DNA of 64,000 nt from a virus. The stretch is from the IMG/VR virus record IMGVR_UViG_3300044614_002617, positions 46,368-110,367 of that record. One strand, 5' to 3'. Positions 4,488 to 26,766 of this stretch are shown here, one piece after another; the stretch's first letter is position 1, and each line of letters starts with the position of its first letter. The notes beneath the pieces were generated by a model, which was given only the letters and a program-made list of their open reading frames with translations, searched no databases and was not told the DNA's origin. The position numbers and the translations under genes are program-made.

Positions 4488-4508
4488 AACTTACCCCCCA
4501 TATCCTTC

Positions 4509-4535
4509 TATTCGGAAATTGCTTGAAAAACTTTA
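4509..4535 (-). promoter_or_regulatory. sigma28/FliA-type promoter
   Basis: Minus strand TAAAGTTT-N11-TCCGAATA; consensus is TAAAGTTT-N11-GCCGATAA. Confidence 0.7.
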
Positions 4536-4592
4536 GCCGTTATTGTAAAATAAGCCTATATTGTTGCACCCAAAATTCCCTAAGAGGGCAAA

Positions 4593-11514: not shown

Positions 11515-12459
11515 ATGTCATCCTCGGTAATATCTCAACAATCCTTAGGGCTAGCGACCGAGACTCAGAGCGGATTGGTTGGTACTGGGACACAATCGTT
11601 CAGTGGGGATAAGACGTTTGCCGGCGCGTATACTGTTAGGGCAATTCAGCAGGTGGGCGTGCCAAATATAGGAACGCACGCAGGATATCTTATACTTGCA
11701 AAAGCGTATGTAAGCGGATTGCAAGAAGTTTCTGAAATTACAGGAACATTTTTGTTAAGCAGAGGTGGCACCGGAACCGGCAACAGAGGAGACACTTATA
11801 CAGTTGTATCAAGATCGGCATACAATGGAGAGGGCTTAACTGTTCAGGTTTCAGTTGCGGGTAATCGTTTTTTTGTGAGAACAGTCAAGGTTACTTACCA
11901 AGGAACGATATACCATGCAATAGAAACTACTGTAACTGGGGGCGAACCAAATAATGGCATTTCATTCCAAGGTGTTATCAAAAATGCAACCCCGATTTAT
12001 GTAGATGCTACATATGTTTCAAGTATTTCTGCCTTTGGAAACTTTACGATTTTAGAAAACGGAATACTTCAAAAACCTCAAACTCCGTCTTTTAGTGGTT
12101 CGTTTTCTACATATACATCGAATACGTCAAATTATAACCCCAACCTAGCGACTTCTTTTAATGTTGGATTTGCTGTAAATGCTGGGCAATCTAGGATTAC
12201 GGTTCCAGTTGCAGGAAAATATTTTGTTCAGGCTCAGCAGCTTGTAAATACCGTTGGAACAAGTGTTTATTTACATATAAGGAAAAATTCAAACACAGTA
12301 AGATATGCGTATAGCAATAATGACGATACATACGACATGAACGTGTCTGCTATGGTAGATTGTGCAGCAAACGATTATATTGATTTTTATTATTCTGGAA
12401 CGACAACATATTCGTGGGCAGACCCTCACTCCGGTGTTATTTGCTATTTAATAGGATAA
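11515..12459 (+). CDS. Short tail fibre with C1q-like head (N-terminus paralogous to 10435)
   Basis: First 37 aa nearly identical to 10435; C-terminal PSFSG...ITVPVAGKY...CYLIG. Confidence 0.75.
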   Translation: MSSSVISQQSLGLATETQSGLVGTGTQSFSGDKTFAGAYTVRAIQQVGVPNIGTHAGYLILAKAYVSGLQEVSEITGTFLLSRGGTGTGNRGDTYTVVSRSAYNGEGLTVQVSVAGNRFFVRTVKVTYQGTIYHAIETTVTGGEPNNGISFQGVIKNATPIYVDATYVSSISAFGNFTILENGILQKPQTPSFSGSFSTYTSNTSNYNPNLATSFNVGFAVNAGQSRITVPVAGKYFVQAQQLVNTVGTSVYLHIRKNSNTVRYAYSNNDDTYDMNVSAMVDCAANDYIDFYYSGTTTYSWADPHSGVICYLIG

Positions 12460-12472
12460 AAAGGAGAATAAT

Positions 12473-12727
12473 ATGCAGGACATAACAATAAGTCTCACGG
12501 AAACCGAGTTCAAAGCGTTGAATGTGGCAGCTCTTTCGCCTCAAGAGTGGGCTAAAAACGCCGTCAAGAGCCGTGCCCAAATCGCGATCGATGAAATTGT
12601 TCAATTGTGTGTCGCAAAAAGTCTTGAAGAACAGGTACAGATTCCTAGTTCCAAAGAAGAAATTGTAGACTTGGCAATCGCTAAGGGATGGGTTAAGATA
12701 GCTTCATCGGAGGTGTCAAATGGCTGA
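12473..12727 (+). CDS. Small fibre-associated protein
   Basis: AAGGAG RBS; follows the C1q-like fibre. Confidence 0.65.
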   Translation: MQDITISLTETEFKALNVAALSPQEWAKNAVKSRAQIAIDEIVQLCVAKSLEEQVQIPSSKEEIVDLAIAKGWVKIASSEVSNG

Positions 12728-13115
12728 TTTAAGTACAATTGCTACGGCTGGTAGAGATTTTCAAGATGGTGGATTTAAAATCAATTATGGCGTATATAGC
12801 CCTACCGTAACTACCGTTTCTGGAATTGCAAACGCAAATTTTGGCAACTCCTTTAGAGATATGAGAACTGGGAACAGAACCATTAATGTTCATAATCTCA
12901 AAGATGGACAATCTTTAACAATTTTGGTTCAGGGCGCACTGAACAATGTTATTACAATAGCTGTGTTTAGCGATGCGGGAGTCACTTCCGTTCCCGTAAA
13001 ATACGGAGCAGGACAAAGCGGCACCATGGCATCCGCCTACTCGCTTTTTACCGTTTATCGTGTTGGGGGGGATTTAAATTTTGCAGTGATTGGGCCAATT
13101 CACGGGATATCGTAA
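12720..13115 (+). CDS. Putative adhesin adaptor (paralog of 24345 and of the 18277 C-terminus)
   Basis: GNRTINVHNLKDGQSLTILVQGA...SLFTVYR...IHGIS shared with those proteins. Confidence 0.7.
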   Translation: MADLSTIATAGRDFQDGGFKINYGVYSPTVTTVSGIANANFGNSFRDMRTGNRTINVHNLKDGQSLTILVQGALNNVITIAVFSDAGVTSVPVKYGAGQSGTMASAYSLFTVYRVGGDLNFAVIGPIHGIS

Positions 13116-13116
13116 T

Positions 13117-14511
13117 ATGTTTTTTAATAATGCCGTTGGTGTGCTAGCAACACAAAAAGCAACTGAAACAGAAGAAAAAATTACATCTTCTATAACAAAA
13201 ACAATGACATCCGCATACGTACCTCAAAGTATTAAAGTTTGGGGCACTGGCGGGGGAGCCGGTGGAGCCAATGGAGCAAATGGGGCAAATGGTAATACCG
13301 GCGGCTCAGGAGTAAACGGAGGTACCGGTATAGCTGGATCCGGAGACAGCGGAGGTCGTGGCTGGTCGAGCGGCGGATACGGTTACGGTGGAGCCGGCGG
13401 AGCTGGCGGAGCCGCTGGCAACGGAGGAGCAGGCGGAGCCGGTGGAGCAGGCGGAGCAGGCGGTGGAAAAGGATCCGGAAATTTAAATAATTACATTTCT
13501 GAAAATTACAATACATATGATTTTTTTTCTGATTTTATTGGCGGGGTTGATATCGCAATTGTTGTTGGAAACGGAGGGAACGCTCAAACAAACGGAAGTT
13601 CATCTGGCCTAAGTGTTAATGGGGTTCAAAAAATTATGTATTCAGGTGGGCTCATAAACCAATCACCTGGAACGCCGGGAGCAAACGGAACAAACGGTAC
13701 GGCTGGCAGCGGCGGAGCCGGTGGAGCCGGGGGTGCGCTCGTCGGAGGATCTGGAGTAAATGGCGGAGGCGCAGGAGGAGGAAGTGGCGGAGCTGGTGGC
13801 AGCGGACGAGGAGCCGGTGGAACCGGGGGCGCCGGTGGGATTGGTGGAAGCAAGAACATTGGTTTCGTCTTAAATGGTATAGAATACGGAACCGGGGGCG
13901 CCGGTGGTAACGGGGGCGCCGGTGGTAACGGTGGAATTGGTGGACTTGGTGGAAATGGCGGAAATGGCGGAAATGGTTATGGAGGGGGAGGCGGAGGACA
14001 GTCTGTTTATCAAACAGACTTTTGGTACTCTTACGCTGGAAACTCCGGAGGTTGGGGCTGGGGCGGCGGCGGCGGTAGCGGGGCGGCTGATATCTTCGCA
14101 GCTTTACCTGGAGGAAACGGAGGCTCTTCGGTAAATGGATACAGTGGAGGAGCCGGAGGTGTGCTTCCGCCTAGTAGTTATGGAGGGGGAAGCGGAGGCG
14201 GCGGCGGTGCCGGCTCCGGCGGAAATGGCGGTGGCGGTGGCGTTGGGTATTATTCAGGAGATGTGTACTATCCGGGCGGCGGAGGCGGCGGTGGCTGGGG
14301 CGGCGGAGGAAATGGCGGACGAGGGCAAGGATATTTGGGGCCATACTCCGGGGGCTCAGAAAGCGGCTATGGCGGAAGCGGTGGAGGATACGGAGGAGCA
14401 GGCGGAGCCGGGGGTGCTTCTGGTGGGGCAGGAACATCCGGAACTGCCGGTCAAGCTGGACAAGCTGGCAAAAATGGCATAATAATTATTAGATATAAAG
14501 TGTTTGAGTAG
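13117..14511 (+). CDS. Glycine-rich adhesin-like protein 1
   Basis: Start corrected to ATG 13117 (MFFNN); GGxGGx runs with aromatic-rich inserts; ends GKNGIIIIRY. Confidence 0.75.
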   Translation: MFFNNAVGVLATQKATETEEKITSSITKTMTSAYVPQSIKVWGTGGGAGGANGANGANGNTGGSGVNGGTGIAGSGDSGGRGWSSGGYGYGGAGGAGGAAGNGGAGGAGGAGGAGGGKGSGNLNNYISENYNTYDFFSDFIGGVDIAIVVGNGGNAQTNGSSSGLSVNGVQKIMYSGGLINQSPGTPGANGTNGTAGSGGAGGAGGALVGGSGVNGGGAGGGSGGAGGSGRGAGGTGGAGGIGGSKNIGFVLNGIEYGTGGAGGNGGAGGNGGIGGLGGNGGNGGNGYGGGGGGQSVYQTDFWYSYAGNSGGWGWGGGGGSGAADIFAALPGGNGGSSVNGYSGGAGGVLPPSSYGGGSGGGGGAGSGGNGGGGGVGYYSGDVYYPGGGGGGGWGGGGNGGRGQGYLGPYSGGSESGYGGSGGGYGGAGGAGGASGGAGTSGTAGQAGQAGKNGIIIIRYKVFE

Positions 14512-14529
14512 AAACTAGAATACAAAAAT

Positions 14530-14558
14530 TTGACTTTAAAAAAACTGTTTTGTAAAAT
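14530..14558 (+). promoter_or_regulatory. sigma70-type promoter
   Basis: TTGACT-N17-TAAAAT upstream of a GGAGG RBS. Confidence 0.6.
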
Positions 14559-14576
14559 TTTTTTGGAGGTTCTTAT

Positions 14577-15311
14577 ATGTCAGATATTATTGTAAGAAAT
14601 GCTGGCACAGCCGTTTCTACTATTCTAGAAACAATTAAGCCAATGTCGGTCATCAAAAAAGAAGATCAGCAGTTTCTTGTTGAGCATAAAGAGCATTTTG
14701 CTCAGGTATTTGAAAAAACGCACATCTGGAGAACAGACACACAAAAGCTTTCAATTGTTTCGGATAGCTATCACCCAACTCTACACTCTAAGTTTCATCA
14801 AGCAATTCTAGAACAAAAAGTTCAATTAGACCAGACTTTCTATTTGGCAAAAGATTTTGAAATGAAAAAAATTGAAATTGAAGAACTAATGCTAGATCTA
14901 GAGGATCTGGGCGATACCGCTAGGGACGAACTTAAAAGACGTAAATTTGAAATTGAACTTCAGTTTAAAAAGTATGAACTAGATCAAATGGTTATTTCCA
15001 TGAATTATAGAATGGCGGAAGTAAAAGGTTGGCAAAAAATTCAAGAAGATCTTTTAATTAAACTGCGAGAATCGGGAATGGACGAGGAAACAATTTGGAG
15101 CAAAGACGCTGGAGAGGTGGAGTCAATGTTCTTTGGTACACTTACTCGCTTGCAGGGTCTGGCCAAAACAACGGACGGTGCCGAAGCAAATAACCTAATA
15201 GCTTTGGCTCAGTTTTACGTACAAAAAGTTCAAGAAAGTGGAAGACTTCCGGAATTAAAAAAGAAATGCAATAAGGCTCAACTGGACTCTCTTAAATTTT
15301 TAGGATATTAA
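14577..15311 (+). CDS. Coiled-coil protein following adhesin (distant paralog of 21405)
   Basis: EIEEL...RRKFEIE pattern aligns by eye with ELEEL...RRKLAIE of 21405. Confidence 0.65.
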   Translation: MSDIIVRNAGTAVSTILETIKPMSVIKKEDQQFLVEHKEHFAQVFEKTHIWRTDTQKLSIVSDSYHPTLHSKFHQAILEQKVQLDQTFYLAKDFEMKKIEIEELMLDLEDLGDTARDELKRRKFEIELQFKKYELDQMVISMNYRMAEVKGWQKIQEDLLIKLRESGMDEETIWSKDAGEVESMFFGTLTRLQGLAKTTDGAEANNLIALAQFYVQKVQESGRLPELKKKCNKAQLDSLKFLGY

Positions 15312-15314
15312 TAT

Positions 15315-15341
15315 TAAAGTTCTTGCAACAAAAGACGATAA
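15315..15341 (+). promoter_or_regulatory. sigma28/FliA-type promoter
   Basis: TAAAGTTC-N11-GACGATAA at the head of a small-gene operon. Confidence 0.7.
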
Positions 15342-15368
15342 GATTTATGGTAAGCATGGGAGGTTCTC

Positions 15369-15437
15369 ATGCTTATTAGCTTTTTTTTAATTATTTTGAT
15401 GGCTTACGTATTCGCCAGAACAGGGAGAACTTTATGA
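15369..15437 (+). CDS. 22-aa hydrophobic leader peptide
   Basis: MLISFFLIILMAYVFARTGRTL; GGGAGG RBS; ATGA overlap with 15434. Confidence 0.45.
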   Translation: MLISFFLIILMAYVFARTGRTL

Positions 15438-15622
15438 AAATGATTTATACACTAATGGATTACGAAAACGGTAAACTAAACGCAGAAGAAACAATTAAAT
15501 TGTTTCAGAATTTGATTGACAGTGGGCTTATTTTTGGTCTGCAGGGTCATTATTTGGAAGTAGCTAGAGATTTGGTAGAAGCTGGCTTGGTTAATCTCAC
15601 AACTGCTGACATTGAGGAGTGA
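15434..15622 (+). CDS. Small phage protein
   Basis: YE.G.L...I..FQ.LID.G....LQG.Y pattern that I recall from phage early genes; RBS present. Confidence 0.7.
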   Translation: MKMIYTLMDYENGKLNAEETIKLFQNLIDSGLIFGLQGHYLEVARDLVEAGLVNLTTADIEE

Positions 15623-15624
15623 TT

Positions 15625-15777
15625 ATGGTAATGGAAATGTTTGTTAATAGAATTTTAAATATCTTGCTAAATAAAAATACACTTATTCATACAACAAAAG
15701 AAATAGCAGAAGCTCAAAACATGGCTCGCCGAGCAATTGCTACCTATGAGGCGGTTGTTACAGGGAATATCTTATGA
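15625..15777 (+). CDS. Hypothetical protein (50 aa)
   Basis: Hand translation MVMEMFVNRIL...VTGNIL; GAGGAG RBS. Confidence 0.55.
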   Translation: MVMEMFVNRILNILLNKNTLIHTTKEIAEAQNMARRAIATYEAVVTGNIL

Positions 15778-15938
15778 CCAATAAGCATGATGACGAAGAG
15801 GGTCGTCCACCAGAAACATTAAATGAAGCTCTGATGTTTCTGGCCTACCACACAGGAATGTTTGCTTTAAAAGTGGCAGCTATTATTGCTGTCTGGGTTA
15901 TGTTAGTAGACCTTTTAAGAAGCCTTATGATGCCCTAG
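15774..15938 (+). CDS. Small membrane protein (54 aa)
   Basis: Hand translation MTNKHDDEEGRPP...ALKVAAIIAVWVMLVDLLRSLMMP; ATGA overlap with the previous ORF. Confidence 0.55.
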   Translation: MTNKHDDEEGRPPETLNEALMFLAYHTGMFALKVAAIIAVWVMLVDLLRSLMMP

Positions 15939-15947
15939 GGAGTTTTT

Positions 15948-16286
15948 ATGCTTAACATTATTATTATAGCTGGTATTGTTTTAGGTGGCATGTCTCTTTC
16001 CGCTGCAAAAAGAAAGCCATTGCCTGTAGGCAGCTGCATTGCCGATAAGTTACTCTGTAATGCAAACGACCCTAATCTTGATCCATGGCAAGTCGAGTGT
16101 TACAACGGCGCATTGCTGAGAATCGAGGCGGTCGGAAAGCATTCTTACAAAACGGGTTGCGTTGAAGAAACTTTTCATTGTAAAGGATTTGTTTCTTTTA
16201 GAGACGCAAGAGATTTTTTCTTTCCGATTGAATGTCCACCCAAGGTGATGCGTCTTCGTAATTCCGTTCCGCTTCCAAAGGAGTAA
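15948..16286 (+). CDS. Membrane-anchored Cys-rich hypothetical protein
   Basis: N-terminal hydrophobic segment, six Cys, GGGAG RBS. Confidence 0.65.
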   Translation: MLNIIIIAGIVLGGMSLSAAKRKPLPVGSCIADKLLCNANDPNLDPWQVECYNGALLRIEAVGKHSYKTGCVEETFHCKGFVSFRDARDFFFPIECPPKVMRLRNSVPLPKE

Positions 16287-16289
16287 GCA

Positions 16290-16475
16290 ATGCCACAAAC
16301 ACTGATCTTGCTGACTTGTGTAATGGTGTTACTAGCTTGTTTACTTTATGTTGCCGACATGGCAAATAATTTTGTTGACACAGCGACTCAAATTTATTGC
16401 GAGCAACGAGCTGATTTTAGTAAATGCTCTCAAGAATTTAAAGAAAAAATGTCAACTCTGATGAAAAGGCACTAA
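16290..16475 (+). CDS. Small membrane protein
   Basis: N-terminal TM segment; AAGGAG RBS. Confidence 0.6.
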   Translation: MPQTLILLTCVMVLLACLLYVADMANNFVDTATQIYCEQRADFSKCSQEFKEKMSTLMKRH

Positions 16476-16489
16476 TTCTACGGTTTTTT

Positions 16490-16669
16490 ATGTCTCTAAA
16501 TATTAAAAAGCTCAGAGAGCAAATAATTCTAACAAAAGAAGGCGATGACTATGTCGCCACTCACCCTTCTCATCCTACACTTTCTGTTTGTGCACCGACA
16601 ATTTTTGAAGCAGAGCAAGAAATCTTACAATATGTTATGTATATGATTTTACTAGAAAATATAAAATAA
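16490..16669 (+). CDS. HicB-like small protein (59 aa)
   Basis: Hand translation MSLNIKKLREQIILTKEGDDYVATHPSHPTLSVCAPTIFEAEQEILQYVMYMILLENIK; weak RBS. Confidence 0.5.
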   Translation: MSLNIKKLREQIILTKEGDDYVATHPSHPTLSVCAPTIFEAEQEILQYVMYMILLENIK

Positions 16670-16671
16670 AA

Positions 16672-16728
16672 GTTTATATTTTCTGCTTTTGATTACATTC
16701 TGTGTAATCGTTAACAGAAAATACAAAC
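16672..16728. terminator. Long imperfect hairpin between convergent operons
   Basis: GTTTATATTTTCTG...GATTACA-ttctg-TGTAATC...CAGAAAATACAAAC nested stems. Confidence 0.55.
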
Positions 16729-16737
16729 CCAAGAAGT

Positions 16738-17190
16738 TCAAATCGGATTTGACATTTTTTGAATCAGACTAAGCGTTGTTTTAGCTCTGTAAATTTCGTA
16801 TTTTTTACCCTCGATTGAGCATCTTTTCTCATCCTTGTGCATTGCAGCCTTAACTTGTTTTACCTCTTCTTCAATCTCAGGAGAATAGTTTTTGCCGTCC
16901 TCTAGCAGCACTTTTACGTAAACAGTAACCATATCGTTACTTAAAGCGGCCACTGTTAGATAAGGTGCCCCAAGGGTTACGTTTGTTTTACTAGTAACCG
17001 CTGAACCAAGAGCATTTGCCATTTCGCTGGGAGAAAGCAATACAACTCCTAATGCGTCGGACGCTTTGGTTAGCTCAGCCACTTCATCAACGCAAGACGT
17101 TGTTGGCTCTTCAAGAATTTTATTAATAGCCAAACCACTTAATGTTATTACCGCCGCTGCTGCCAAACCAAACTTTGTTACTCTTTTCAT
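16738..17190 (-). CDS. Membrane-anchored or exported hypothetical protein
   Basis: Signal/TM N-terminus; AGGAGG RBS. Confidence 0.7.
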   Translation of the reverse strand: MKRVTKFGLAAAAVITLSGLAINKILEEPTTSCVDEVAELTKASDALGVVLLSPSEMANALGSAVTSKTNVTLGAPYLTVAALSNDMVTVYVKVLLEDGKNYSPEIEEEVKQVKAAMHKDEKRCSIEGKKYEIYRAKTTLSLIQKMSNPI

Positions 17191-17480
17191 TACTCACCTC
17201 CTGTTTCATTATCGTATTTTTTATTAGAAACTTTAATATTTTCTTTATCGTCGCCATTCCACTCTTTTTTTACATGCTCATCTAATTTAGGCTTGTGTTT
17301 CAGCGGATAGTAATGATTTGTAATTACGTTCAGCACCATGGCTACATGCTGAGCTTTAAAACCTTCAGGCAATTTACTTGCCAGCTCTTCAGTTAAGTGA
17401 TCAAAACATAATTTTTTTGAAAACATTGGAGTAACCATCGCGTCGCATTTTTTGCATTTTTGCCACCGCTCATTTTCCAT
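17190..17480 (-). CDS. Hypothetical protein with Zn-finger-like motif
   Basis: CKKC...CFDH. Confidence 0.65.
   Translation of the reverse strand: MENERWQKCKKCDAMVTPMFSKKLCFDHLTEELASKLPEGFKAQHVAMVLNVITNHYYPLKHKPKLDEHVKKEWNGDDKENIKVSNKKYDNETGGE
17209..17235 (-). promoter_or_regulatory. sigma28/FliA-type promoter, internal to the upstream CDS
   Basis: Minus strand TAAAGTTT-N11-TACGATAA just upstream of the RBS of 16738..17190. Confidence 0.6.
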
Positions 17481-17491
17481 AAGTCTCCTAA

Positions 17492-18031
17492 TTAAAAAAA
17501 GATTTCTTCAAACTCTTCATAATCTTTTTCAAAAATTCGCATAGTCTTATCTTTGTCAGAAATAGCTTTTAAGATGGGGGTTTTGCCCACATTATCTATT
17601 TCCGTAAAAATCCACTTAGTTCTGGTGGACTTATGAAACAAAACAGAGCCGACAGAAAACGGAAGTTTTTTTGATTTTTCGGTCTTTTTTTCTTCGGAAG
17701 TATTAGTGCGCGAATCATCCACCCACCCCCAATTTTGTTGTGATGAGGGAGGATATGTAGTGGTGTTTGTTTGAGTCTTGGTTGACAGGTCTATTTTAAC
17801 TAAGCTCAAAGACACGGGGTCTTGATACTCAACAGTCGTTATCCATGCGTCATAAGTGCATGGAATCAATCTTTTAATCATACTGTCGTGCACACTATAC
17901 TGACTGTATGTTGGGTACAACATTGTAAAATTATGACAATCTTTACTGTCTACCGTTCCATCCGCCTGCAGAACAAACGAAGAGATTTGGTCAAAATACA
18001 TATCGCCTTGGTCTAGTGGTTTTGCAGCCAT
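17492..18031 (-). CDS. Hypothetical protein
   Basis: 179-aa ORF with GGAG RBS. Confidence 0.65.
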   Translation of the reverse strand: MAAKPLDQGDMYFDQISSFVLQADGTVDSKDCHNFTMLYPTYSQYSVHDSMIKRLIPCTYDAWITTVEYQDPVSLSLVKIDLSTKTQTNTTTYPPSSQQNWGWVDDSRTNTSEEKKTEKSKKLPFSVGSVLFHKSTRTKWIFTEIDNVGKTPILKAISDKDKTMRIFEKDYEEFEEIFF

Positions 18032-18045
18032 ACCAACTCCAACTG

Positions 18046-18126
18046 TTATTTTGAATAAAAATCAATTAAAAATCTTAACAAAGCCGGCAATATTAAAATT
18101 AATATAATAATAACAATGTCTTGCAT
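18046..18126 (-). CDS. 26-aa membrane peptide
   Basis: MQDIVIIILILILPALLRFLIDFYSK; AGGAG RBS. Confidence 0.5.
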   Translation of the reverse strand: MQDIVIIILILILPALLRFLIDFYSK

Positions 18127-18150
18127 TTTTACTCCTATATTTTTTTTAAC

Positions 18151-18189
18151 TTGCAACCACATACTAAACCTGATATAAATGTCTTGCAA
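18151..18189. promoter_or_regulatory. Overlapping divergent sigma70-type promoters
   Basis: Plus strand TTGCAA-N17-TATAAA (18151-18179); minus strand TTGCAA-N17-TAGTAT (18189-18161). Confidence 0.5.
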
Positions 18190-18276
18190 GCTCTTTTTGG
18201 TTTTTTAAAATTGTTTGTAAAAATCATAGACTTAAATATTAAAATAGGTATGCGTTTTTAGTACAAAGGAGAAAAC

Positions 18277-20508
18277 GTGAGCTATGTAGGCAAAAAACCT
18301 AGCTTTAAGCAGGTTCGCACAAATGAAATCGTTGTCCCAAAGGGCACCGACATTACTACAGCTGGAGTGATTACTGCTCTAGACGTTAGTAACATCAGTT
18401 TTGTGAAGCTTACGGCTGCTACTGAGTTGCAAGGCATCGTAGCGCCTGAGTCTCCGGCAATTGATGGTAAGTTGGTAACTATCGTAAACGCTTCTTCATC
18501 GGATTTGGTTATTTCTGATCAATCCGGCGGAGCGTCTGTAAATAATCGCATAGTTACCGGCACAAGTCGAAATATGCGAATTACCGCCGGCGCTTCTTTT
18601 ACGGTCGCATATGATGTTGATTCGTCTCGATGGCGAGTTACCGCTACATCGGCAGATGTTAATATTGGTCGATTGGACGTTGGAACTGGCGCACTTGCTC
18701 TAAACTCAGAAGACGTCTCCCTTACTCCGGAAAATATCAATTCATCTTTGATTGAGGTTACGGCGGGAACCGCCGCTAAAATTCGTTCCGTTGACACACA
18801 GAATGTCGGAAATCTTATTGTTTTTACCAACAAAACTGGTCAAATTTTTCAAATTAAAAATGAAGATACTGACGTACTCGTTGCGGAAAAGCGTATTCGC
18901 ACTGGTACAGGCGGCCCAATCCTAATTCAAAATAACGCCTCTGTGATGTTGGGCTACTTGGCCGATAGATGGCACGTAGTTGGTGGTACCGGATCGGGTG
19001 GTGGCGCCACGGAACAGGTTACACAAACTGGAATTGGAAACTTGCTTACATATCCCGTTGGTACTCCACTTTATGTTGACACAACAACGGGTCTGTGGAC
19101 AAAAGCAAGTGCCGTTTCGGCAGACGCTGCAGAAGTTGCAGGCCTTCTTGGTCGTAGCCTAAACACTAATTTTGCTGAAGTTGCTTTGGCGGGAGAAGTA
19201 AGCGAAGTAACCGCAGATGCCTTTGCGGAGGCCGTATTGCCACCCAAGGGCTCCGCTGTGTTTTTGTCTACCACAGCGGGAAAACTTACAGTTTCCGATG
19301 TGACTACAGTTGGGTGTATTAGTAAACCAGTCGGCATTGTCCATAATGTAACAGGAACATCTTCGGTTGATATTATATTTTACAATCAACGAGGGGTTGT
19401 TGTTGGCGGCGTAAACGCAAGAACACAAATTCTTCTTGGTGGCTCCCCAAGTGCGCCGGTTGTTACGCCAATTCAAAATGTTTCACAATACGAAGCGGGT
19501 GAGATTGCCGGTTGGATTACAATTAATGCGAGCACTGATTATCAGTTTTATTTTCAAGCTCAGTTTACAAAAATTCCTAACACATCGAATTACAGTATTG
19601 CCGTTCCTCAAACAGTTGGGTCGACTCCTCCAGCGGGTTTTTCGATGGACGTTGTGTCAGGAGTCGTGCAAGTAACTTTGCCCGCGTTGGCTGGTTTTGT
19701 TACTGCATACGTCAATTTTGCTCTAAATGCACCGGCAGTTGGCGCAACACTGCCTTTAAGTATTAATTCAACGAGTGTGTATACAACATACAAAATGGTG
19801 TCTGGCGCATACAGTATTGGGAGCACGGACAGCTTAATTGCCGCAACCGGCGCAAGCACTTATGCTATTACCCTACCGACGGCTGTCGGTGCCTTGGGCG
19901 TTGCCTATACGATTAAGTCCGAAATGAACGCGGGAGTTGCGCTAACGGTTAACACAACAAGCGGACAGCTTATAGACACGGTTTCATCTAAAACACTAGC
20001 AACTGGCGAAGTTCTTAAGGTTGTAAGTGACGGAAATAAATGGATAGCTATTATTTCTCAACAAGACGTAACCGCAGCATTAACCGCATCTAGGGCGGTT
20101 CAAACGGATGTGGATAAAAAATTAGTCAGCGCTGGCTTTAGCTTGCCTGCTGTTGCCGGCTCTAATTTGCAATTTTTATCGTCCAATGGAGATGGAACTT
20201 CGTCTTGGAGAGACGTTATAAAGCTAACCGCAACCACAAGCGGAGCCGTTGATGCAAGCCTAAGCGATTCTTTTATTCACAACGGGAGCGGCTCTAGAAC
20301 AATTTCTGTCAGTAATTTAACGGATGGCCAGACAATTAACATAAACGTGCAGGGCGCAAATGGAAATGTTATTAGTTGGACTACTACAGGCTTAACGCAA
20401 AAAACAGGAATAACTTATAGTAATACGATGATCAGCGTGAATAGCATTTTCACACTGTCTCGCTTTGGGTCAAATGTTTTTATTAGCTCTTTGCATGGAT
20501 TTGGGTGA
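18277..20508 (+). CDS. Tail fibre / branching protein with C-terminal adaptor domain
   Basis: MSYVGKKP start; about 260-aa block paralogous to 4593; TLP...SDGNKW domain; C-terminus homologous to 12720 and 24345. Confidence 0.8.
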   Translation: MSYVGKKPSFKQVRTNEIVVPKGTDITTAGVITALDVSNISFVKLTAATELQGIVAPESPAIDGKLVTIVNASSSDLVISDQSGGASVNNRIVTGTSRNMRITAGASFTVAYDVDSSRWRVTATSADVNIGRLDVGTGALALNSEDVSLTPENINSSLIEVTAGTAAKIRSVDTQNVGNLIVFTNKTGQIFQIKNEDTDVLVAEKRIRTGTGGPILIQNNASVMLGYLADRWHVVGGTGSGGGATEQVTQTGIGNLLTYPVGTPLYVDTTTGLWTKASAVSADAAEVAGLLGRSLNTNFAEVALAGEVSEVTADAFAEAVLPPKGSAVFLSTTAGKLTVSDVTTVGCISKPVGIVHNVTGTSSVDIIFYNQRGVVVGGVNARTQILLGGSPSAPVVTPIQNVSQYEAGEIAGWITINASTDYQFYFQAQFTKIPNTSNYSIAVPQTVGSTPPAGFSMDVVSGVVQVTLPALAGFVTAYVNFALNAPAVGATLPLSINSTSVYTTYKMVSGAYSIGSTDSLIAATGASTYAITLPTAVGALGVAYTIKSEMNAGVALTVNTTSGQLIDTVSSKTLATGEVLKVVSDGNKWIAIISQQDVTAALTASRAVQTDVDKKLVSAGFSLPAVAGSNLQFLSSNGDGTSSWRDVIKLTATTSGAVDASLSDSFIHNGSGSRTISVSNLTDGQTININVQGANGNVISWTTTGLTQKTGITYSNTMISVNSIFTLSRFGSNVFISSLHGFG

Positions 20509-20511
20509 TAT

Positions 20512-21408
20512 ATGGCTTTTCCAATTGCTCATTTTCAAAATTTTATCGGTAGGGGTTATTTCGGTGGAGGTTTTTCCGGTAGTTTTTTAAACGAAATAGA
20601 TGGTATACAATTTAATACTGAAGCTGCCATCAACCCATCTGCAACTCTAGCGGTAGTTAGAATTAATTTGGCGGGCGTCAATTCAGCATCCAGGGGTTAT
20701 TTCGGTGGAGGTTTTTCTGGCGGCGCCACATATTCAAATGAAATAGATGGTATACAATTTAATACTGAAGCTGCCATCAACCCATCTGCAACTTTGGCGG
20801 TAGCTAGAACTTCATTGGCGGGCGTCAATTCAGCATCCAGGGGTTATTTCGGTGGAGGTTTTGATGTCAGTTCGGTAAACGAAATAGATGGAATAGATTT
20901 TAATACTGAAGCTGCCATCAACCCATCTGCAACTTTGGCGGCAGCTAGAGATGGTTTGGTAGGCGTCAATTCGGCATCTAGAGGTTATTTTGGTGGAGGT
21001 GCATATACAAACGAAATAGATGGCATACAATTTAATACTGAAGCTGCCATCAACCCATCTGCAACTCTAGCGGTAGCTAGATTTGGAATGGCAGGCGTCA
21101 ATTCGGCATCCAGGGGTTATTTCGGTGGAGGTTTTGATACTAACGGTCTGGTAAACGAAATAGATGGAATAGATTTTAATACTGAAGCTGCCATCAACCC
21201 ATCTGCAACTCTAGTAGAATCCAGAGGCGGCTCAGCGGGTGTTAATTCGATGTCTAGGGGTTATTTTGGTGGAGGGTATTCTGGTAACCCTACATATTCA
21301 AATGAAATAGACGGAATACAGTTTAGCACTGAAGTCGTCACAAATCCATCTGCAACTTTGGCAGTAGCTAGAAATAATCTAGCAGGCGTTCAGTGGGGTG
21401 CATTATGA
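20512..21408 (+). CDS. Six-repeat Kelch-like beta-propeller, putative adhesin
   Basis: Six copies of RGYFGGG-(variable)-NEIDGIxFxTE...NPSATL...R-xxx-xGV. Confidence 0.75.
   Translation: MAFPIAHFQNFIGRGYFGGGFSGSFLNEIDGIQFNTEAAINPSATLAVVRINLAGVNSASRGYFGGGFSGGATYSNEIDGIQFNTEAAINPSATLAVARTSLAGVNSASRGYFGGGFDVSSVNEIDGIDFNTEAAINPSATLAAARDGLVGVNSASRGYFGGGAYTNEIDGIQFNTEAAINPSATLAVARFGMAGVNSASRGYFGGGFDTNGLVNEIDGIDFNTEAAINPSATLVESRGGSAGVNSMSRGYFGGGYSGNPTYSNEIDGIQFSTEVVTNPSATLAVARNNLAGVQWGAL
20550..21390 (+). repeat. Intragenic tandem repeat, six units of about 130-150 bp
   Basis: TTTAATACTGAAGCTGCCATCAACCCATCTGCAACT occurs five times exactly, plus one diverged copy. Confidence 0.9.
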
Positions 21409-22028
21409 AATACTCTGAATTGGTAGAAAAAGAGCTTTTGGATAAATGCGAAGATATTCCGTTTGGCAATTCGCTATATCAGGACGAAAGTTTTGTCCTT
21501 AACACTTCTTATACGGATGCTCGAGCGGTTCGCAATATAGGCCTTGCATTATCTGCACGGGTTAGAGCGCTAAAAGAGTTGGAATACGGGCTAGAAACAC
21601 TTCAAGTAGAACTGGAAGAGTTGGATTATAAAATTGAAAATAGTCCAGATTCTTTTGAGCGTCGAAAGTTGGCTATAGAAAAAAGAAAAAAACAAGACGG
21701 CACTGCGTATACATTAAAGCTGCTAAAAGATACGCTATATGAAATTGAATATTTTCGTAAAATATTAGAAAAATTACCAAAATTATCAAGAGCAGAGTTT
21801 GAAGAGCAAGAAAAACAATATTTTATGGAATCTTTAACTAGACAAGCAGTTGGGTTGAGCGAACCTGACAAAAACCTCGCAGCTATGGGGCTGAAAGAAC
21901 GTCCAAAGGTAGACTTTATTTCTGCCACTTTATCTGAAAAATTAAATATATCAGTATCCGCCGTTTTAGGCGGCATAGTCTTGCCATCCCACGAAAATAT
22001 TCTTAAGCTAAGCGGAGGAGATGAATAA
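21405..22028 (+). CDS. Coiled-coil protein following adhesin
   Basis: Start corrected to ATG 21405 (ATGA overlap); resembles 14577. Confidence 0.7.
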   Translation: MKYSELVEKELLDKCEDIPFGNSLYQDESFVLNTSYTDARAVRNIGLALSARVRALKELEYGLETLQVELEELDYKIENSPDSFERRKLAIEKRKKQDGTAYTLKLLKDTLYEIEYFRKILEKLPKLSRAEFEEQEKQYFMESLTRQAVGLSEPDKNLAAMGLKERPKVDFISATLSEKLNISVSAVLGGIVLPSHENILKLSGGDE

Positions 22029-22687
22029 TGCCTATAGTTTCAATGTTAGTAAGCGTTAATGGGCCTGGAACTATCCCTCTTGGTGCTGTTATTTCGATTG
22101 GCAATCCTGGGGCATGGGCTTTGCCCGCTGCGGGAGAAATCAAAGATGGATATGCTCTGTGTAACGGTCAAGCCTTTCCTGCCGGCAGTAGCCCGTTATT
22201 TTCTGGAACAATGCCAAACCTTTCAGACAGTAGATTTTTGCAAGGTTCTAGTTCTGTGGGCGGAACAGGCGGTGCCAATAGCAAAACACTAGCGACCGCT
22301 GAGTTACCTGCACATACTCATACAATGGCACACACTCACGGTATAGATCATGACCACCCCAACGCTTCAACAGGCTCTAGCGGTGACCATGACCATAGAA
22401 TTTTGTCTCCATTTGGAGGTGCCGGGAATGAATACTTAAGTTGGAATACTGGACCCGATAACAACTACGCGGGACCTGAATTAAATGCAACTAATTCGCC
22501 TCCAGACAACTTTTCTTTAGTTAGAACGGAGTATTTAGGTAGTCATACACACAGTTTGGATTTACCAAATTTTACTGGAACATCTGGAGCCGCTTCTAAT
22601 TCAACGACGAGCCCCGTTGGCTCTGGAACTTCTTTTGATATTCGTCCACAATACTTTAATGTTGTTTATTTGATGAGGGTAATTTAA
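22028..22687 (+). CDS. Tail collar domain protein
   Basis: GYALCNGQ, MPNL..RF..G, ELPAHTH, HxH repeats, DIRPQYFNVVYLMRV. Confidence 0.85.
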   Translation: MPIVSMLVSVNGPGTIPLGAVISIGNPGAWALPAAGEIKDGYALCNGQAFPAGSSPLFSGTMPNLSDSRFLQGSSSVGGTGGANSKTLATAELPAHTHTMAHTHGIDHDHPNASTGSSGDHDHRILSPFGGAGNEYLSWNTGPDNNYAGPELNATNSPPDNFSLVRTEYLGSHTHSLDLPNFTGTSGAASNSTTSPVGSGTSFDIRPQYFNVVYLMRVI

Positions 22688-22688
22688 T

Positions 22689-22925
22689 ATGGAATATGTA
22701 ATTGTTTATAAATACAAGGCATCTTGGTTTTGGAAAAAACAAAAAGTAACCGGTCACTCCTATAATAAAGAAGTGGACAAGCTAGTTCTCTTTAAAAAAG
22801 ACGGTTCACTTGAAGAGGTTGCGGAGTGGTCTAAGCATCACGTTAAGTTGGGTGTGGACTTTGTTGCTGCGCAAAAAAAGCAAATGGAAAAAGAAACAGG
22901 AACAGATATAAAGTTAAATGTATAA
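22689..22925 (+). CDS. Hypothetical protein
   Basis: 78-aa ORF within the operon. Confidence 0.6.
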   Translation: MEYVIVYKYKASWFWKKQKVTGHSYNKEVDKLVLFKKDGSLEEVAEWSKHHVKLGVDFVAAQKKQMEKETGTDIKLNV

Positions 22926-22934
22926 GGATTTATT

Positions 22935-24320
22935 ATGGCTTTAAAAACAATATATCAAGGCCCAAATGGCGCCGTTGCTATAGATGAACAGCAGAATACG
23001 ACTGTATCTGCTGATTATAATGCTGTTTTTTCTGATTATATTATCACTGCCACAGGAGCAGGAAACTTTACGATTACCCTACCTCCAGCAAATCCGTCCA
23101 ACGGTAAAAATGTAGTCGTTAAGTGCTTGACTACAAACCCAATCACAGTGAGCGCTCAAAGCGGAGAGTTTATTGACACTGTACCCTCCAAGGCTCTTTT
23201 AAACGGCGAAGTTCTTGAGGTGCTAAGTGACGGTACCAAATGGATTAATACCGCAGGCGATGCAATCTCTGGTTCAAAAATTATTAACGGAACTGTTACC
23301 GGAGATAAATTAGCTGCCAACAGTGTTACTGCTGACAAATTAGCTACTAACAGTGTTACTGCGGATAAAATCGCTAACAATACAATAACAGGAGCAAAAT
23401 TAGCCGCAGACAGCGTTACGGCCGACAAAATTGCCACTGGAGCCGTTGGAACAACTGAAATTAGTACAAGTGCTGAGCCAACTGTTAGTACGATATATTC
23501 TAATAGTTGGTTTAGAAGCAATGGAAATTCTGGCTGGTACAATCAAACGTATGGCGGCGGAATTTTTATGGAATCTTCGGATGTTATAAAAACCTATGGA
23601 GGTAAAAATTTTTACTGTAGCGGACAAATTTCTGCAGGAAGCTTTTGGGGATCTTATTACGGAACAATGTACCCATCAACCATTAGGTTTTACCCAGACA
23701 ATCCGGGATCTGGAACAGGAGATACCGCAATTATGTCTTGGGGTCAAAAATCAAGTTTTACGGAAAATTGCAGACTAACCATTGAGGTTCAAAACGACCC
23801 AACCGATGATGTTTTAATTACAACAAATCAGGGATATATACAAGTCGGCGGAACAGATTACGACGCCGGAATAAATATAAAAGCATCGAGTCAGATAATT
23901 TTATGGTATCCCAATAGACGTTTTGTATTACAATCCGATGGAAATGCGGTAATATACAATCAATTTGGTACGGCAGTGTGGGCATCGGGAACAGCCGGTT
24001 CGGATCTTAAATTAAAAGAAAATATAAAAACATATACAGAGCTCAGTGTAGAAAAAATTAAAAAATTAAGAGTAATAGAGTTTAATTATATAGAAAATTA
24101 CGATAATTCTATGGAAACAAAAGTAGGTTTTATTGCTCAAGATGTAGAAAAAATTATACCTCAAGCGGTAAAAAGCATTGGTCAAAATCAAGAAAAAACT
24201 CTTTTGCTTCATAAAGAAGAAATAGTTCCGTATCTTGTAAAAGCCGTTCAGGAGCAGCAAACACAAATAGAAGCTTTGGAAGAACGAATTAAAAAATTAG
24301 AAGAATTGATAAAATATTAA
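22935..24320 (+). CDS. Tail fibre with C-terminal S74 intramolecular chaperone
   Basis: SVTADKLA repeats; WFRSNGNSGWYNQTYGGG (PilV-like); QSDGNAVIY; SDLKLKENI...GFIAQDV and a terminal coiled coil. Confidence 0.85.
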   Translation: MALKTIYQGPNGAVAIDEQQNTTVSADYNAVFSDYIITATGAGNFTITLPPANPSNGKNVVVKCLTTNPITVSAQSGEFIDTVPSKALLNGEVLEVLSDGTKWINTAGDAISGSKIINGTVTGDKLAANSVTADKLATNSVTADKIANNTITGAKLAADSVTADKIATGAVGTTEISTSAEPTVSTIYSNSWFRSNGNSGWYNQTYGGGIFMESSDVIKTYGGKNFYCSGQISAGSFWGSYYGTMYPSTIRFYPDNPGSGTGDTAIMSWGQKSSFTENCRLTIEVQNDPTDDVLITTNQGYIQVGGTDYDAGINIKASSQIILWYPNRRFVLQSDGNAVIYNQFGTAVWASGTAGSDLKLKENIKTYTELSVEKIKKLRVIEFNYIENYDNSMETKVGFIAQDVEKIIPQAVKSIGQNQEKTLLLHKEEIVPYLVKAVQEQQTQIEALEERIKKLEELIKY

Positions 24321-24344
24321 TTTTATTAAAAAAAGGAAGTAATC

Positions 24345-24764
24345 ATGGCAAATTCAGCAATTGCAACAGCTACCCTAACAGACCTAAGAACTCGCTATCA
24401 AGACGGGAGTTTGAAAATTGATTATGGTGTTTTTAGTCCAACTGTTGATGTAAGTAGTAATACTGTTGATGCTTCTTTGGGCGCGAACTTTAAAGCCTTG
24501 GGTTCGGGCAACAGAACCTTGTCTGTTCATAATATGAAAGATGGCCAATCTGTAACGATTTTAGTTCAAGGCGCAGTAAACGATGCTATTACGTTAAATG
24601 CGTACTCCGACGGAGGAGTAACAGCATTATCGGTAAAATTTGCTGCAGGTCAAAACGGAATTATGGCTTCTGCATGGTCGTTGTTTACTGTTATGAGAAT
24701 CGGTGGGACAAGCGGCGCAGGCGCTAATTTTGCCGTTGTTGGTGTAATGCACGGAATTTCATAA
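24345..24764 (+). CDS. Putative adhesin adaptor (paralog of 12720)
   Basis: Aligns along most of its length with 12720; ends MHGIS. Confidence 0.7.
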   Translation: MANSAIATATLTDLRTRYQDGSLKIDYGVFSPTVDVSSNTVDASLGANFKALGSGNRTLSVHNMKDGQSVTILVQGAVNDAITLNAYSDGGVTALSVKFAAGQNGIMASAWSLFTVMRIGGTSGAGANFAVVGVMHGIS

Positions 24765-24775
24765 GAGAGATAAAA

Positions 24776-26149
24776 ATGATATTCAATGCTCCAATTAAAG
24801 TAACCCCTCAAAGAACCGAAGAAGTTGAAGAAAAAATTACATCTTCTACAACAAAAACAATGACATCTGCATATGTACCTCAAAGCATTAAGGTTTGGGG
24901 TATTGGCGGAGGCGCAGGAGGAGGAGGAGGCGGGAGCGGAAGCAACGGTAGCTCCGGTGGGGCGGGATGGACAGGCGAAACCGGTGGAGGCGGTAGCGGG
25001 AGTGCTGGGTCAAATGCTCCCGATCAGTATTCCAATCCCGGAAATTCAGGAACCGGGGGTACAGCTTATGGAGGTTACGGTGGAGCTGGTGGAGCGGGTG
25101 GAAGCGGAGGCTCGGGCGGAAATGGTGGAGCGGGCGGAAACGGGGGCGGCCGAGGAGCTGGAAACTTAAATGGTTACCTTGCCGGAAACTCTTTTGACAG
25201 CTTAGCCGATTACATTGGAAATTTGACTTTGAGTATTACTATCGGTAGCGGGGGATCTGCCAATTCAAGTGGCGGCACTACTGTTGTTGCAATTAACGCT
25301 GTGCCTAAAATTACCTATTCCGGTGGCCTGCTGTCTGCAGGAAATGCTGGAAACGGAGGGGGTTTTGGCAGTGGAGGAGGTAGTGGCAGTGGAGGAGGAT
25401 CCAGAGGCTCTGGCCAGGTTTTGGGACCAAACGGTAAGGATGCTAGGGGGGCGCCGGGCGGCGGTCGCGGTGGCGGAGGTTCTGGAGGTGGCGGAGGTTC
25501 TGGAGGTGGCGGAGGTTCTGGCGGAGCAGGCCAATCTGGAATAATTATTTCAGGAATCGAATATGGCGGAGGGGGCTCTGGTGGGGCCGGAGGTTCCGGC
25601 GGAGCTGGCGGAGCCGGAGGTAACGGCGGAGCGGGCGGAAACGGTGGCATGGGATATGGAGGCGGCGGAGGAGGAAGCTTTGAGTCTGCCTTTAGAAACG
25701 GTGGCTCCGGAGGAGCTGGGTGGGCAGGCGGAGGAGGCGGATCTACTGGGGCGCCATCATCATTTTCAGGAAGCGGAGGTATATCCATTTATAGCGGAAG
25801 ATCCGGCGGTTCTGGGGGGCAAGGTGCATTAAGAACCACGGTAGGATATGTTTATTTTTATGGCGGTGGCGGCGGCGGAGGAGGAACGTGGCAAAACGGA
25901 GGAAGAGGTACAAATGCATCGGCAATAAGCCAAACGCATGGAACAGCCGGAGCCGGCGGCGCTGATGGCGGCGGAGGCGGTGGGCGGTTTGGATCCGGTG
26001 GTGGTCGCGGTGGCGCTGGGGGCGGAGTTGGTGGAGCTGGAGGAGACGGCGGAGCATCTGGCGCTGGGGGCGGAAGCGGACAAACCGGACAAGCTGGACA
26101 AGCTGGCAAAAATGGCATAATAATATTAAGATATAAAATATTCAAATAA
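24776..26149 (+). CDS. Glycine-rich adhesin-like protein 2
   Basis: Same termini as 13117 (EEKITSSxTKTMTSAYVPQSIKVWG; GQAGQAGKNGIII.RY). Confidence 0.75.
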   Translation: MIFNAPIKVTPQRTEEVEEKITSSTTKTMTSAYVPQSIKVWGIGGGAGGGGGGSGSNGSSGGAGWTGETGGGGSGSAGSNAPDQYSNPGNSGTGGTAYGGYGGAGGAGGSGGSGGNGGAGGNGGGRGAGNLNGYLAGNSFDSLADYIGNLTLSITIGSGGSANSSGGTTVVAINAVPKITYSGGLLSAGNAGNGGGFGSGGGSGSGGGSRGSGQVLGPNGKDARGAPGGGRGGGGSGGGGGSGGGGGSGGAGQSGIIISGIEYGGGGSGGAGGSGGAGGAGGNGGAGGNGGMGYGGGGGGSFESAFRNGGSGGAGWAGGGGGSTGAPSSFSGSGGISIYSGRSGGSGGQGALRTTVGYVYFYGGGGGGGGTWQNGGRGTNASAISQTHGTAGAGGADGGGGGGRFGSGGGRGGAGGGVGGAGGDGGASGAGGGSGQTGQAGQAGKNGIIILRYKIFK

Positions 26150-26162
26150 GGAGGCAACTATC

Positions 26163-26711
26163 ATGGCACTAAGAGATTATCTTTCTGCAAAGACCTATAC
26201 TGCAATTTCAAATTTAATCTACGAAAAAAACCTCAAACGCTGCACAGCGATGCTTGAGATCTGGACAGATGATTCAAAAACGCTTCTTCTCGCAAACAAA
26301 GGCGTAACAATTGACGGAACAATTAAAATTCCTCCTGTCGCAAGTCTAGAGATTCTAGCTCAATCTGAGCCAGAAGACAAAAACCCTGACATGTACTATA
26401 TTATTGCTCAAGACGCAAAAGGCTCATTTGCTGGTTATGAAGGACAGCTAACGCGGTTCAACCCACATACAAATAATTGGGATAAGTGGGTTTTGTGGGA
26501 AGGTCTTATGGTTTTTGTTGAAGATGAAAGTAAGTATTATCAAAGAGTCGACGGAAACTGGAAAGAAAATCTAGATTGCTCTTCCGATGCTCGCATTTGG
26601 GACAAATGGATGGCTCCCGAAATTGCTATGGCAAAGGGAACCAATCCTATGCAACAAATGTATAAATTTATGAAAACATTGCCACAATTTAAAAACTGCA
26701 AAGACGCTTAA
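26163..26711 (+). CDS. Fibre-associated protein with DUF2793-like segment
   Basis: YIIAQDAKGSFAGYEGQL...W....EGLMVFVEDE......GNW. Confidence 0.6.
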   Translation: MALRDYLSAKTYTAISNLIYEKNLKRCTAMLEIWTDDSKTLLLANKGVTIDGTIKIPPVASLEILAQSEPEDKNPDMYYIIAQDAKGSFAGYEGQLTRFNPHTNNWDKWVLWEGLMVFVEDESKYYQRVDGNWKENLDCSSDARIWDKWMAPEIAMAKGTNPMQQMYKFMKTLPQFKNCKDA

Positions 26712-26727
26712 AAATAATTATAGACAC

Positions 26728-26766
26728 AATCTCCATCATCTGATATATGGATGATGGAGATTTTTT
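26728..26766 (+). terminator. 13-bp hairpin: terminator that also covers the next RBS
   Basis: AATCTCCATCATC-N9-GATGATGGAGATT followed by TTTT. Confidence 0.75.

Follow-up and report, generated by a model that had tools for sequence, protein, structure and literature searches.

The principle of joining phage proteins through a short docking peptide is already known. In K1-5/SP6 (gp37 adaptor) and G7C (gp66-gp63.1), a short conserved N-terminal peptide has been modelled as docking a second receptor-binding protein (RBP) on a branching domain (PMC6872550), and experiments with KP32, K11, and KP34 have found that losing either the peptide or the branching domain abolishes the incorporation of RBP2 (PMC13352976). 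In S16, the adhesin gp38 is held on a hydrophobic platform, to which it binds with three short helices (PMC9608196). The subject of this report is a putative connector family that is itself undescribed and very widespread, found in a 64-kb stretch of viral DNA (hereafter the window; bases 46368-110367 of the 110-kb IMG/VR record IMGVR_UViG_3300044614_002617). Its central element is a domain of about 105 amino acids (aa), called the socket here, that forms the C-terminus of a tail fibre and the bulk of two small free-standing proteins and that is each time encoded directly upstream of a putative adhesin.

The reading favoured here, to which a probability of about 60% is assigned, is that of a two-part fibre tip in which a distal socket holds the adhesin encoded downstream through the N-terminal peptide of that adhesin. 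The socket would stand at the C-terminal, distal end of a fibre or be carried by a minimal protein of 131-139 aa with a short N-terminal tether, and the protein encoded directly downstream would be the actual receptor-binding adhesin, docking onto the socket with its first ~12 residues, which usually include a Phe at positions 2-4. In this phage, the adhesins would be two glycine (Gly)-rich proteins of the TNF-like/polyglycine-II kind and one six-repeat protein, probably a propeller. As a fit to the socket would be required of the peptide alone, unrelated adhesin bodies would be exchangeable, and recombination just past the peptide could swap one fold for another. The entire unit of socket and adhesin may also be able to replace a conventional fused tip. 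Physical docking is something that we infer from the comparisons below, as are its stoichiometry and the attachment partner of the free sockets.

A sequence-only reading of the window had described this domain as present three times, and the three copies are borne out: two are free genes (12720-13115 and 24345-24764), and one is the C-terminus of the fibre at 18277-20508. The entire 110-kb record holds exactly these three. The free sockets are 57% identical to each other (E 1e-50); the first is 41% identical to residues 653-741 of the 743-aa fibre (E 3e-14), and the second is ~40% identical to the same fibre region, ~653-741 (E 7e-12). Fused forms are also found elsewhere, in the fibres P0024 (367 aa) and P0025 (370 aa), whose last ~105 residues are 75-76% identical to a free socket. 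Judged by these alignments, free and fibre-fused sockets are one family. Each copy is directly followed by a gene whose product starts M-x-F, at 13117 (MFF, after 1 nucleotide [nt]), 20512 (MAF, after 3 nt and in the same frame), and 24776 (MIF, after 11 nt). As had also been read from the sequence, two of the three products are Gly-rich and the one between them is built of six units. The two Gly-rich proteins are homologues, recognized by their MAFFT-aligned ends and framework, and the six-repeat protein is recognized by its NEIDGI repeats. The genes concerned are as follows:

12720-13115, plus strand: free-standing socket protein 1, 131 aa; in its model, residues 1-24 are disordered and ~28-131 form a beta-sandwich.
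13117-14511, plus strand: Gly-rich adhesin 1 (putative), 464 aa, with an MFFNN start; predicted TNF-like sandwich with polyglycine-II loops.
18277-20508, plus strand: tail fibre, 743 aa; residues 1-590 are common to sibling phages and the C-terminal ~105 aa are the socket.
20512-21408, plus strand: six-repeat protein, 298 aa, with a MAFPIAHF start; candidate adhesin docked on the fibre socket.
24345-24764, plus strand: free-standing socket protein 2, 139 aa, with orthologues in the surveyed loci L009, L010, L022, L023, and L024.
24776-26149, plus strand: Gly-rich adhesin 2 (putative), 457 aa, with a MIFNA start; it has the same conserved ends and strand framework as adhesin 1.

The first evidence for the two-part tip is the gene neighbourhood. 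Close relatives of the free socket were surveyed in 23 loci from scans of IMG/VR and JGI metagenomes, and the expectation that adaptor and adhesin genes occur together was upheld, with a Gly-rich gene after the free socket in 23/23. These downstream proteins contain 30-43% Gly, except for a 121-aa copy in L024 at 29%, and their genes lie 1-12 nt after the socket gene where the start has been worked out. They start MFF, MIF, MFV, MFS, or MPVPF and end in strands resembling GKNGIIIxRYKIFK. An origin of socket and adhesin from a single gene broken by an error or frameshift was rejected, since the split is kept in 23 loci and the offsets of the downstream start differ. L024 carries two socket/Gly-rich pairs in tandem; in the first (4379-4744), the Gly-rich adhesin has shrunk to 121 aa with only its conserved ends left, in what looks like an internal deletion between Gly-rich repeats, and a second, complete pair follows. 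L025 (1-6396 of Ga0194115_10000066, a different 155-kb phage) and L026 have a socket with an MPIIKKLSS... extension, followed by a 501-aa Gly-rich protein and a DUF2793-like gene. Immediately before these genes are two large ones, of 505 and 562 aa, which by position may be terminase-like and portal-like; such neighbours would make an appendage of the head or neck, rather than a tail fibre, a possibility.

A second, more distant family extends the arrangement well beyond Gly-rich partners. It was entered through the fibres of L011 and L012, which end in a related domain with a QD(A/G)TG(S/G)R motif and are followed by Gly-rich genes of ~170 aa, and hhalign identifies the close and distant domain families as homologues (probability 97.1%, E 6e-11). 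One IMG/VR scan returned more than 415 relatives; 80 loci were kept, 76 of them with a complete socket-bearing reading frame. The domain-bearing proteins are 117-1256 aa long with typical fibre N-termini, the match ends 0-42 residues from the stop in 76/76 complete frames, and the chosen downstream start lies between 11 nt before and 18 nt after the stop of the socket gene in 71/76. From residue 41 onward, the downstream proteins form 29 BLAST clusters whose bodies are mutually unrelated. Their Pfam matches include DUF7483, SPRY with DUF7483, triple laminin-G/ConA-like domains, Gly_rich_2, CBM_4_9, and a weak WD40-type propeller, and the proteins reach lengths of 1142 aa. In L092, the Gly-rich partner matches Gly_rich_2 at 35.6 bits (cutoff 24.3; E 1.3e-8).

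Cultured carriers of this domain include the Arthrobacter phages Molivia and Mimi, the Roseobacter phages CRP-9 and CRP-603, the Microcystis phage Mel-JY34, and Halorubrum tailed viruses. The four that were inspected (Molivia, Mel-JY34, one Halorubrum virus, and CRP-603) each have the match ending at a gene boundary. In the Halorubrum tailed virus DL1 (L110, ORF25/ORF26), the socket ends a 516-aa protein, and the next gene, of 201 aa, begins after 26 nt. For the close family, 1.84 billion representatives were searched with a profile; the 126 proteins recovered are up to 3247 aa in length, with the domain at the extreme C-terminus in nearly all. Among these sockets, a large "...W.PGY" subfamily (A6; P0056-P0150) likewise forms the C-terminal domain, on proteins of as many as 3247 aa; IMG/VR holds no relatives of this subfamily, which may for that reason be of cellular or unclassified-element origin. 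The fibre-type sockets (A7) likewise have no relatives among IMG/VR sequences. The socket family carries no Pfam annotation and no functional PHROG annotation.

Further evidence is found in the first residues of the downstream proteins. Of 69 downstream genes, 39 encode a Phe at positions 2-4, compared to 27/270 control open reading frames (ORFs), which were taken from the same loci and are 150 aa or longer, for an odds ratio of 11.7 (p 2e-15); after dereplication, the count is 32/58, and a hand count of the listed N-termini places such a Phe in about 16/29 body clusters. Recurrent N-termini are MFSSNTS, MFAASKT, and MS(I/L/V)(F/L)NN, and the MFFNN and MIFNA starts in the window fit the last type. 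The peptide also follows the socket rather than the body that it is attached to. In 65 locus pairs with no similarity between bodies and with socket tails at least 70% identical, residues 1-12 are 56% identical and residues 41-52 only 9%, while in pairs with a socket identity under 40% the corresponding values are 17% and 11%. A Mantel-type test of the N-terminal peptide against the socket found 0/999 permutations reaching the observed correlation. For example, an MFSSNTS-type peptide heads three proteins that follow near-identical socket tails, one with DUF7483 (L077), one with Gly_rich_2 (L092), and one with a weak propeller match (L073). As far as can be read from these comparisons, the first 12 residues go with the socket subtype, whichever adhesin body they precede.

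The same pattern could be produced if the two proteins were neighbours without contact, that is, if they were separately attached fibres or tail proteins and the socket 3' end plus ~12 codons served as a recombination linker. The breakpoints do fall just past the N-terminal peptide, tail-fibre loci are classic mosaics, and the support for socket-adhesin contact is comparative, with structure models of single chains. A DNA linker, however, would require no protein-level conservation, nor any Phe enrichment common to families of different DNA sequence and G+C. It also sits poorly with free sockets of 131-139 aa that have neither a shaft nor an evident function of their own, and with a domain that is extremely C-terminal in 76/76 complete frames. 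An explanation by adjacency without contact is held to be unlikely.

The fibre at 18277 illustrates what the two-part tip may replace. Two further features are needed here:

19978-22114, plus strand: phage-specific segment of ~2.1 kb, comprising the fibre end with the socket, the six-repeat gene, the gene at 21405, and the 5' end of the gene at 22028.
22028-22687, plus strand: free-standing tail-collar tip protein, 219 aa, the counterpart of the fibre-fused collar tip of the siblings.

By blastn, window 18106-19977 corresponds to 1737-3606 of the sibling locus L010, and window 22115-23630 corresponds to 3754-5266. Between these blocks, window 19978-22114 replaces 148 bp of the siblings L010 and L024, at the point where the shaft joins a fused collar tip. 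Over residues 1-590, but not beyond, the fibre shares 85% identity with the 805-aa fibre of L010, whose residues 598-805, a collar tip, are instead 70% identical to the free collar tip at 22028. The presence of the 2.1-kb segment in place of 148 bp puts the unit of socket and adhesin, as judged by alignment, at the position of a conventional fused receptor-binding tip. The protein at 22028 has weak Collar/Gp10_C matches in Pfam and in tail-fibre PHROGs and is 58% identical to a free 201-aa collar protein in L009. Its gene is a mosaic, with a 5' end like the L009 free gene and a 3' end like the L010 fused tip. Such free collar tips, with an MPIVSML or MAIVSMM start (L009 2685-3290), adjoin a fibre that already ends in a collar tip, as in L009, or in a socket, as in the window.

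The protein that follows the fibre socket consists of six repeats of ~48 aa, with NEIDGI at residues 27, 76, 123, 167, 215, and 264. It matches phrog_19111 (6.5e-52) and, marginally, Kelch_3 (22.7 bits; cutoff 22), and its repeat pattern suggests that it is probably a propeller. A homologue (27% identity, E 1.6e-11) lies directly 3' of a socket-ending fibre on the unrelated contig L075. Synechococcus phage S-SKS1 (NC_020851.1, L013; 208 kb) has 16 places matching the six-repeat protein, the best at 42% identity over 91% of the query; on inspection, no socket context was seen for them.

The two Gly-rich proteins share, in a MAFFT alignment, an N-terminal region of ~45 residues, a strand framework, and a C-terminal strand, with intervening Gly-rich loops that vary in length; BLASTP with composition adjustment finds nothing between them. 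The model of Gly-rich adhesin 1 has a predicted local distance difference test (pLDDT) score of 65.9, with residues 1-9 below 50; its first element is a strand at residues 15-22, and there is no helix before residue 123. It aligns with the fibre protein gp24 of cyanophage Pam3 (7ypx_A; Z 12.1, 160 residues, 27% identity), with the Bxb1 tail tip (9d93_Pa; Z 10.1), with the glycine-rich domains (GRDs) of ALK (Z 6.5-7.3), and with the polyglycine-II antifreeze proteins of springtail and snow flea (Z 5-6), compared to Z of at most 4.2 for unrelated chains. Atlas feature matches point to PF21722 (Gly_rich_2) clusters with a score of 0.93. The Pfam PF21722 model itself does not match the window proteins even at E up to 10, and a PDB sequence search with the Gly-rich profile (A1) returned spurious linker matches only and no phage protein. 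The Z-scores for Pam3, Bxb1, and ALK, together with the PF21722 feature matches, are the reason for assigning these proteins, on the strength of the model, to the TNF-like/glycine-rich type of Pam3 gp24 (PMC9608196) and the ALK GRD. Inside the Gly-rich genes there are also long ORFs in alternative frames or on the antisense strand, for example at 14135-14482 (plus) and 25315-25788 (minus). They are rich in Pro, Glu, or Ala and are most likely not genes but a consequence of the GGN-rich coding sequence.

The roles could also be the other way around, with the socket itself acting as the receptor (glycan)-binding tip and the downstream protein acting as an assembly factor or tip-bound chaperone, like Tfa of Mu and lambda or gp25 of Pam3. 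Genes for tail-fibre chaperones likewise lie directly 3' of fibre genes, and the socket fold is also found in CpaA (Z 5.7), in StcE (Z 4.7), and in the distal domain of a capsid spike (Z 9.3). Against this stand the downstream proteins themselves, which are large, hypervariable, and lectin-like in fold (laminin-G, SPRY, Gly_rich_2, CBM); the Gly-rich fold matches the fibre protein gp24 and not the chaperone gp25, and no match to Tfa or another chaperone family was found in Pfam, PHROG, or NCBIfam. A socket that binds the receptor while its neighbour assists assembly is regarded as quite improbable.

The socket fold has been approached through an AlphaFold2 model of socket 1 (mean pLDDT 82.5), in which residues ~28-131 form a beta-sandwich and the N-terminal ~24 residues are disordered. 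The closest matches are to the capsid spike of Pseudomonas phage Pa223, in its C-terminal domain (Z 9.3), to a baseplate protein of Klebsiella phage KP1 (Z 7.8), and to residues 75-182 of CBA120 TSP4 (Z 7.6), followed by modules of the metalloproteases CpaA (Z 5.7) and StcE (Z 4.7). Foldseek finds a weak resemblance to T4 gp9 and gp10, and in BFVD the fold recurs, at E of at most 1e-3, in 143 predicted viral proteins, many of them named tail fibres. The TSP4 segment is domain XD1, which has been described as resembling the gp9 middle domain as well as the CpaA and StcE modules (PMC8825819). The model thus points to a gp9/XD1-like beta-sandwich, an assignment that is tentative because the Z-scores are near the background stated for the tool.

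The sequence-only reading had added a third layer to the system, a partner gene after each adhesin, two of which were taken to be related coiled coils. These genes are as follows:

14577-15311, plus strand: optional gene of unassigned function, 244 aa, outside the conserved unit.
21405-22028, plus strand: gene of unassigned function, 207 aa, overlapping the six-repeat stop by 4 nt and lying inside the inserted segment.
26163-26711, plus strand: DUF2793 protein, 182 aa (Pfam DUF2793, 3e-6, 27.5 bits; cutoff 27).

Loosely, a further gene does come after each adhesin, but the three are mutually unrelated, 14577-15311 is an indel, and only the DUF2793 gene at 26163 recurs. The kinship of 14577 and 21405 was rejected, as BLASTP finds nothing between them and hhalign gives a probability of 1.6%. 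L008 joins window position 14505 (its 7786) to window position 15315 (its 7809) with 22 bp between and so lacks 14577. This gene is also absent in L005, L014-L016, and L021, and it is present in L019 and L020; L017 and L018 end earlier. From these alignments, 14577-15311 is a clean indel, and the socket/adhesin pair is kept in close relatives lacking the gene. Its product has no match in Pfam or PHROG. The product of 21405 matches phrog_1409, of unknown function (1.1e-13), and has no tblastn match in 50,697 phage records. Type-2 socket/adhesin pairs are followed by between one and three DUF2793 genes in L009, L022, L024 (second pair), L025, and L027, and in L009 (7662-9694; a 162.7-kb relative) the gene is present as three diverged tandem copies, 44-65% identical to that in the window. 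For the DUF2793 protein, there is no sequence relative in the PDB and no usable Atlas match, and the third genes have no sequence match to the chaperone families for tail fibre assembly (Tfa, T4 gp38, Pam3 gp25). Type-1 pairs have no conserved third gene. Comparison of the loci indicates that a three-gene cassette with a partner is not a conserved unit and that third genes are not a required part of the system.

The recurrence of DUF2793 genes, triplicated in L009, and the fact that 21405 travels within the inserted segment could be taken to favour a complex of reversed polarity, or of three parts. The Gly-rich or six-repeat protein would then be proximal to the virion and capped by the socket, and a third gene (DUF2793 or 21405) would provide a bridge. 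This is hard to reconcile with fused sockets that stand at the C-terminal, and hence distal, end of long fibres with typical tail-attachment N-termini; in addition, 14577 is dispensable, and type-1 pairs lack a conserved third gene. A reversed or three-part complex is considered very unlikely.

The record from which the window comes has an estimated completeness of 67%, and the G+C of the window is ~42%. Between 4.6 and 31.6 kb of the window, plus-strand genes are densely packed, and many of them match tail-fibre families; a UvsX-like recombinase and a large DNA polymerase are encoded farther along. Megablast of window 12000-27000 against the 50,697 phage records found no match, so by DNA there is no near cultured phage in that set, and tblastn of the socket against the same records also found none.

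Several points weigh against the two-part tip. The Phe motif is not universal, as ~45% of the downstream genes are without a Phe at positions 2-4, and many of the surveyed loci share one large downstream family and are not independent. Linked genes are inherited together, and recombination alone could keep a conserved gene junction. The structure models are of single chains, one socket and one Gly-rich protein, and the support for docking is comparative genomics. The socket fold matches, with Z-scores of 7-9, are close to the stated background of the tool; the fold also occurs in the metalloproteases CpaA and StcE, a similarity reported for XD1 too, and XD1 has been described as a spacer and not as a docking site (PMC8825819). 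On the other side, the plug-and-socket arrangement suggested by the sequence-only reading has gained comparative support from adjacency, Phe enrichment, covariation of the first 12 residues, and tip replacement, while its partner layer is not confirmed as described and the Gly-rich proteins do not match T2/S16 gp38 by sequence.

A broader proposal can be made, although its chances are put at somewhat less than even. The socket and the Phe peptide may together be an undescribed standard in-line connector of tailed viruses of Proteobacteria, Cyanobacteria, Actinobacteria, and haloarchaea that mounts interchangeable lectin-like adhesins (Gly-rich, propeller-like, laminin-G, SPRY, and DUF7483), with the free socket as a minimal adaptor that converts other attachment sites. 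If sockets do bind these peptides, host-range modules of many uncultured phages would become readable from sequence, as whatever gene comes next to a socket on its 3' side would encode the adhesin and the first ~12 residues of an adhesin would name the socket that it fits. It would also explain how unrelated binding folds move between fibres. Some carriers of the family are in culture, among them phages of Arthrobacter, Roseobacter-clade bacteria, and Microcystis as well as a Halorubrum virus, so the two-part tip can be tested at the bench.

How does this system compare with those already described? The sequence-only reading had named the gp38 adhesin of T2/S16, which caps the gp37 tip, as the established case. 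The likeness is that a Gly-rich adhesin is encoded by a gene of its own, just past that of the distal fibre, and that a conserved framework carries variable loops; as gp38 caps the fibre tip, the same placement is proposed for the adhesins here. The window Gly-rich proteins have no sequence similarity to gp38 in Pfam, PHROG, and NCBIfam or in a PDB profile search, and gp38 is not among the fold matches listed for the Gly-rich model (pLDDT 65.9), where polyglycine-II-type matches are present. Unlike S16 gp38, the model has no N-terminal helix and thus no helical attachment domain, and the proteins are of the Pam3 gp24/ALK-GRD type. Pam3 gp24, which combines a TNF-like with a glycine-rich domain (PF21722; ALK/LTK GRD), shares with them a strand framework with GGxGG loops. 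However, gp24 docks to the baseplate by means of a long helical bundle at its N-terminus and is accompanied by a Tfa-like chaperone, gp25, whereas the window proteins have only an N-terminal peptide of ~12 residues, are about twice the size of gp24, and follow a socket domain.

The closest parallels in organization are the anchor/branching-domain systems (KP32, K11, KP34, K1-5/SP6, G7C, and CBA120 TSP4/TSP2), which, as here, have an adjacent second RBP, a small beta-domain, and exchangeable bodies. Their peptides are 7-11 aa long and hydrophobic, for example MALxxLV, compared to ~12 residues with a Phe signature here, and their partners are depolymerase spikes, compared to lectin-like adhesins. 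Their known docking domains resemble XD2/XD3 of T4 gp10, lie near the N-terminus of the anchor, and form side branches; the socket is a distinct sequence family with, tentatively, a gp9/XD1-like fold. In the comparison with gp10 XD2/XD3, the structural match was to TSP4 75-182 (XD1, Z 7.6), with weak Foldseek matches to T4 gp9/gp10 and no sequence-family match. Also unlike the anchor/branching systems, the socket is always C-terminal and is sometimes a free 131-aa protein, and because it is always C-terminal, the connection would be in line and distal. If the binding of peptide by socket is true, phages would have a second connector standard, in line at the fibre tip, beside the gp10-like branching domains that are used in phage engineering.

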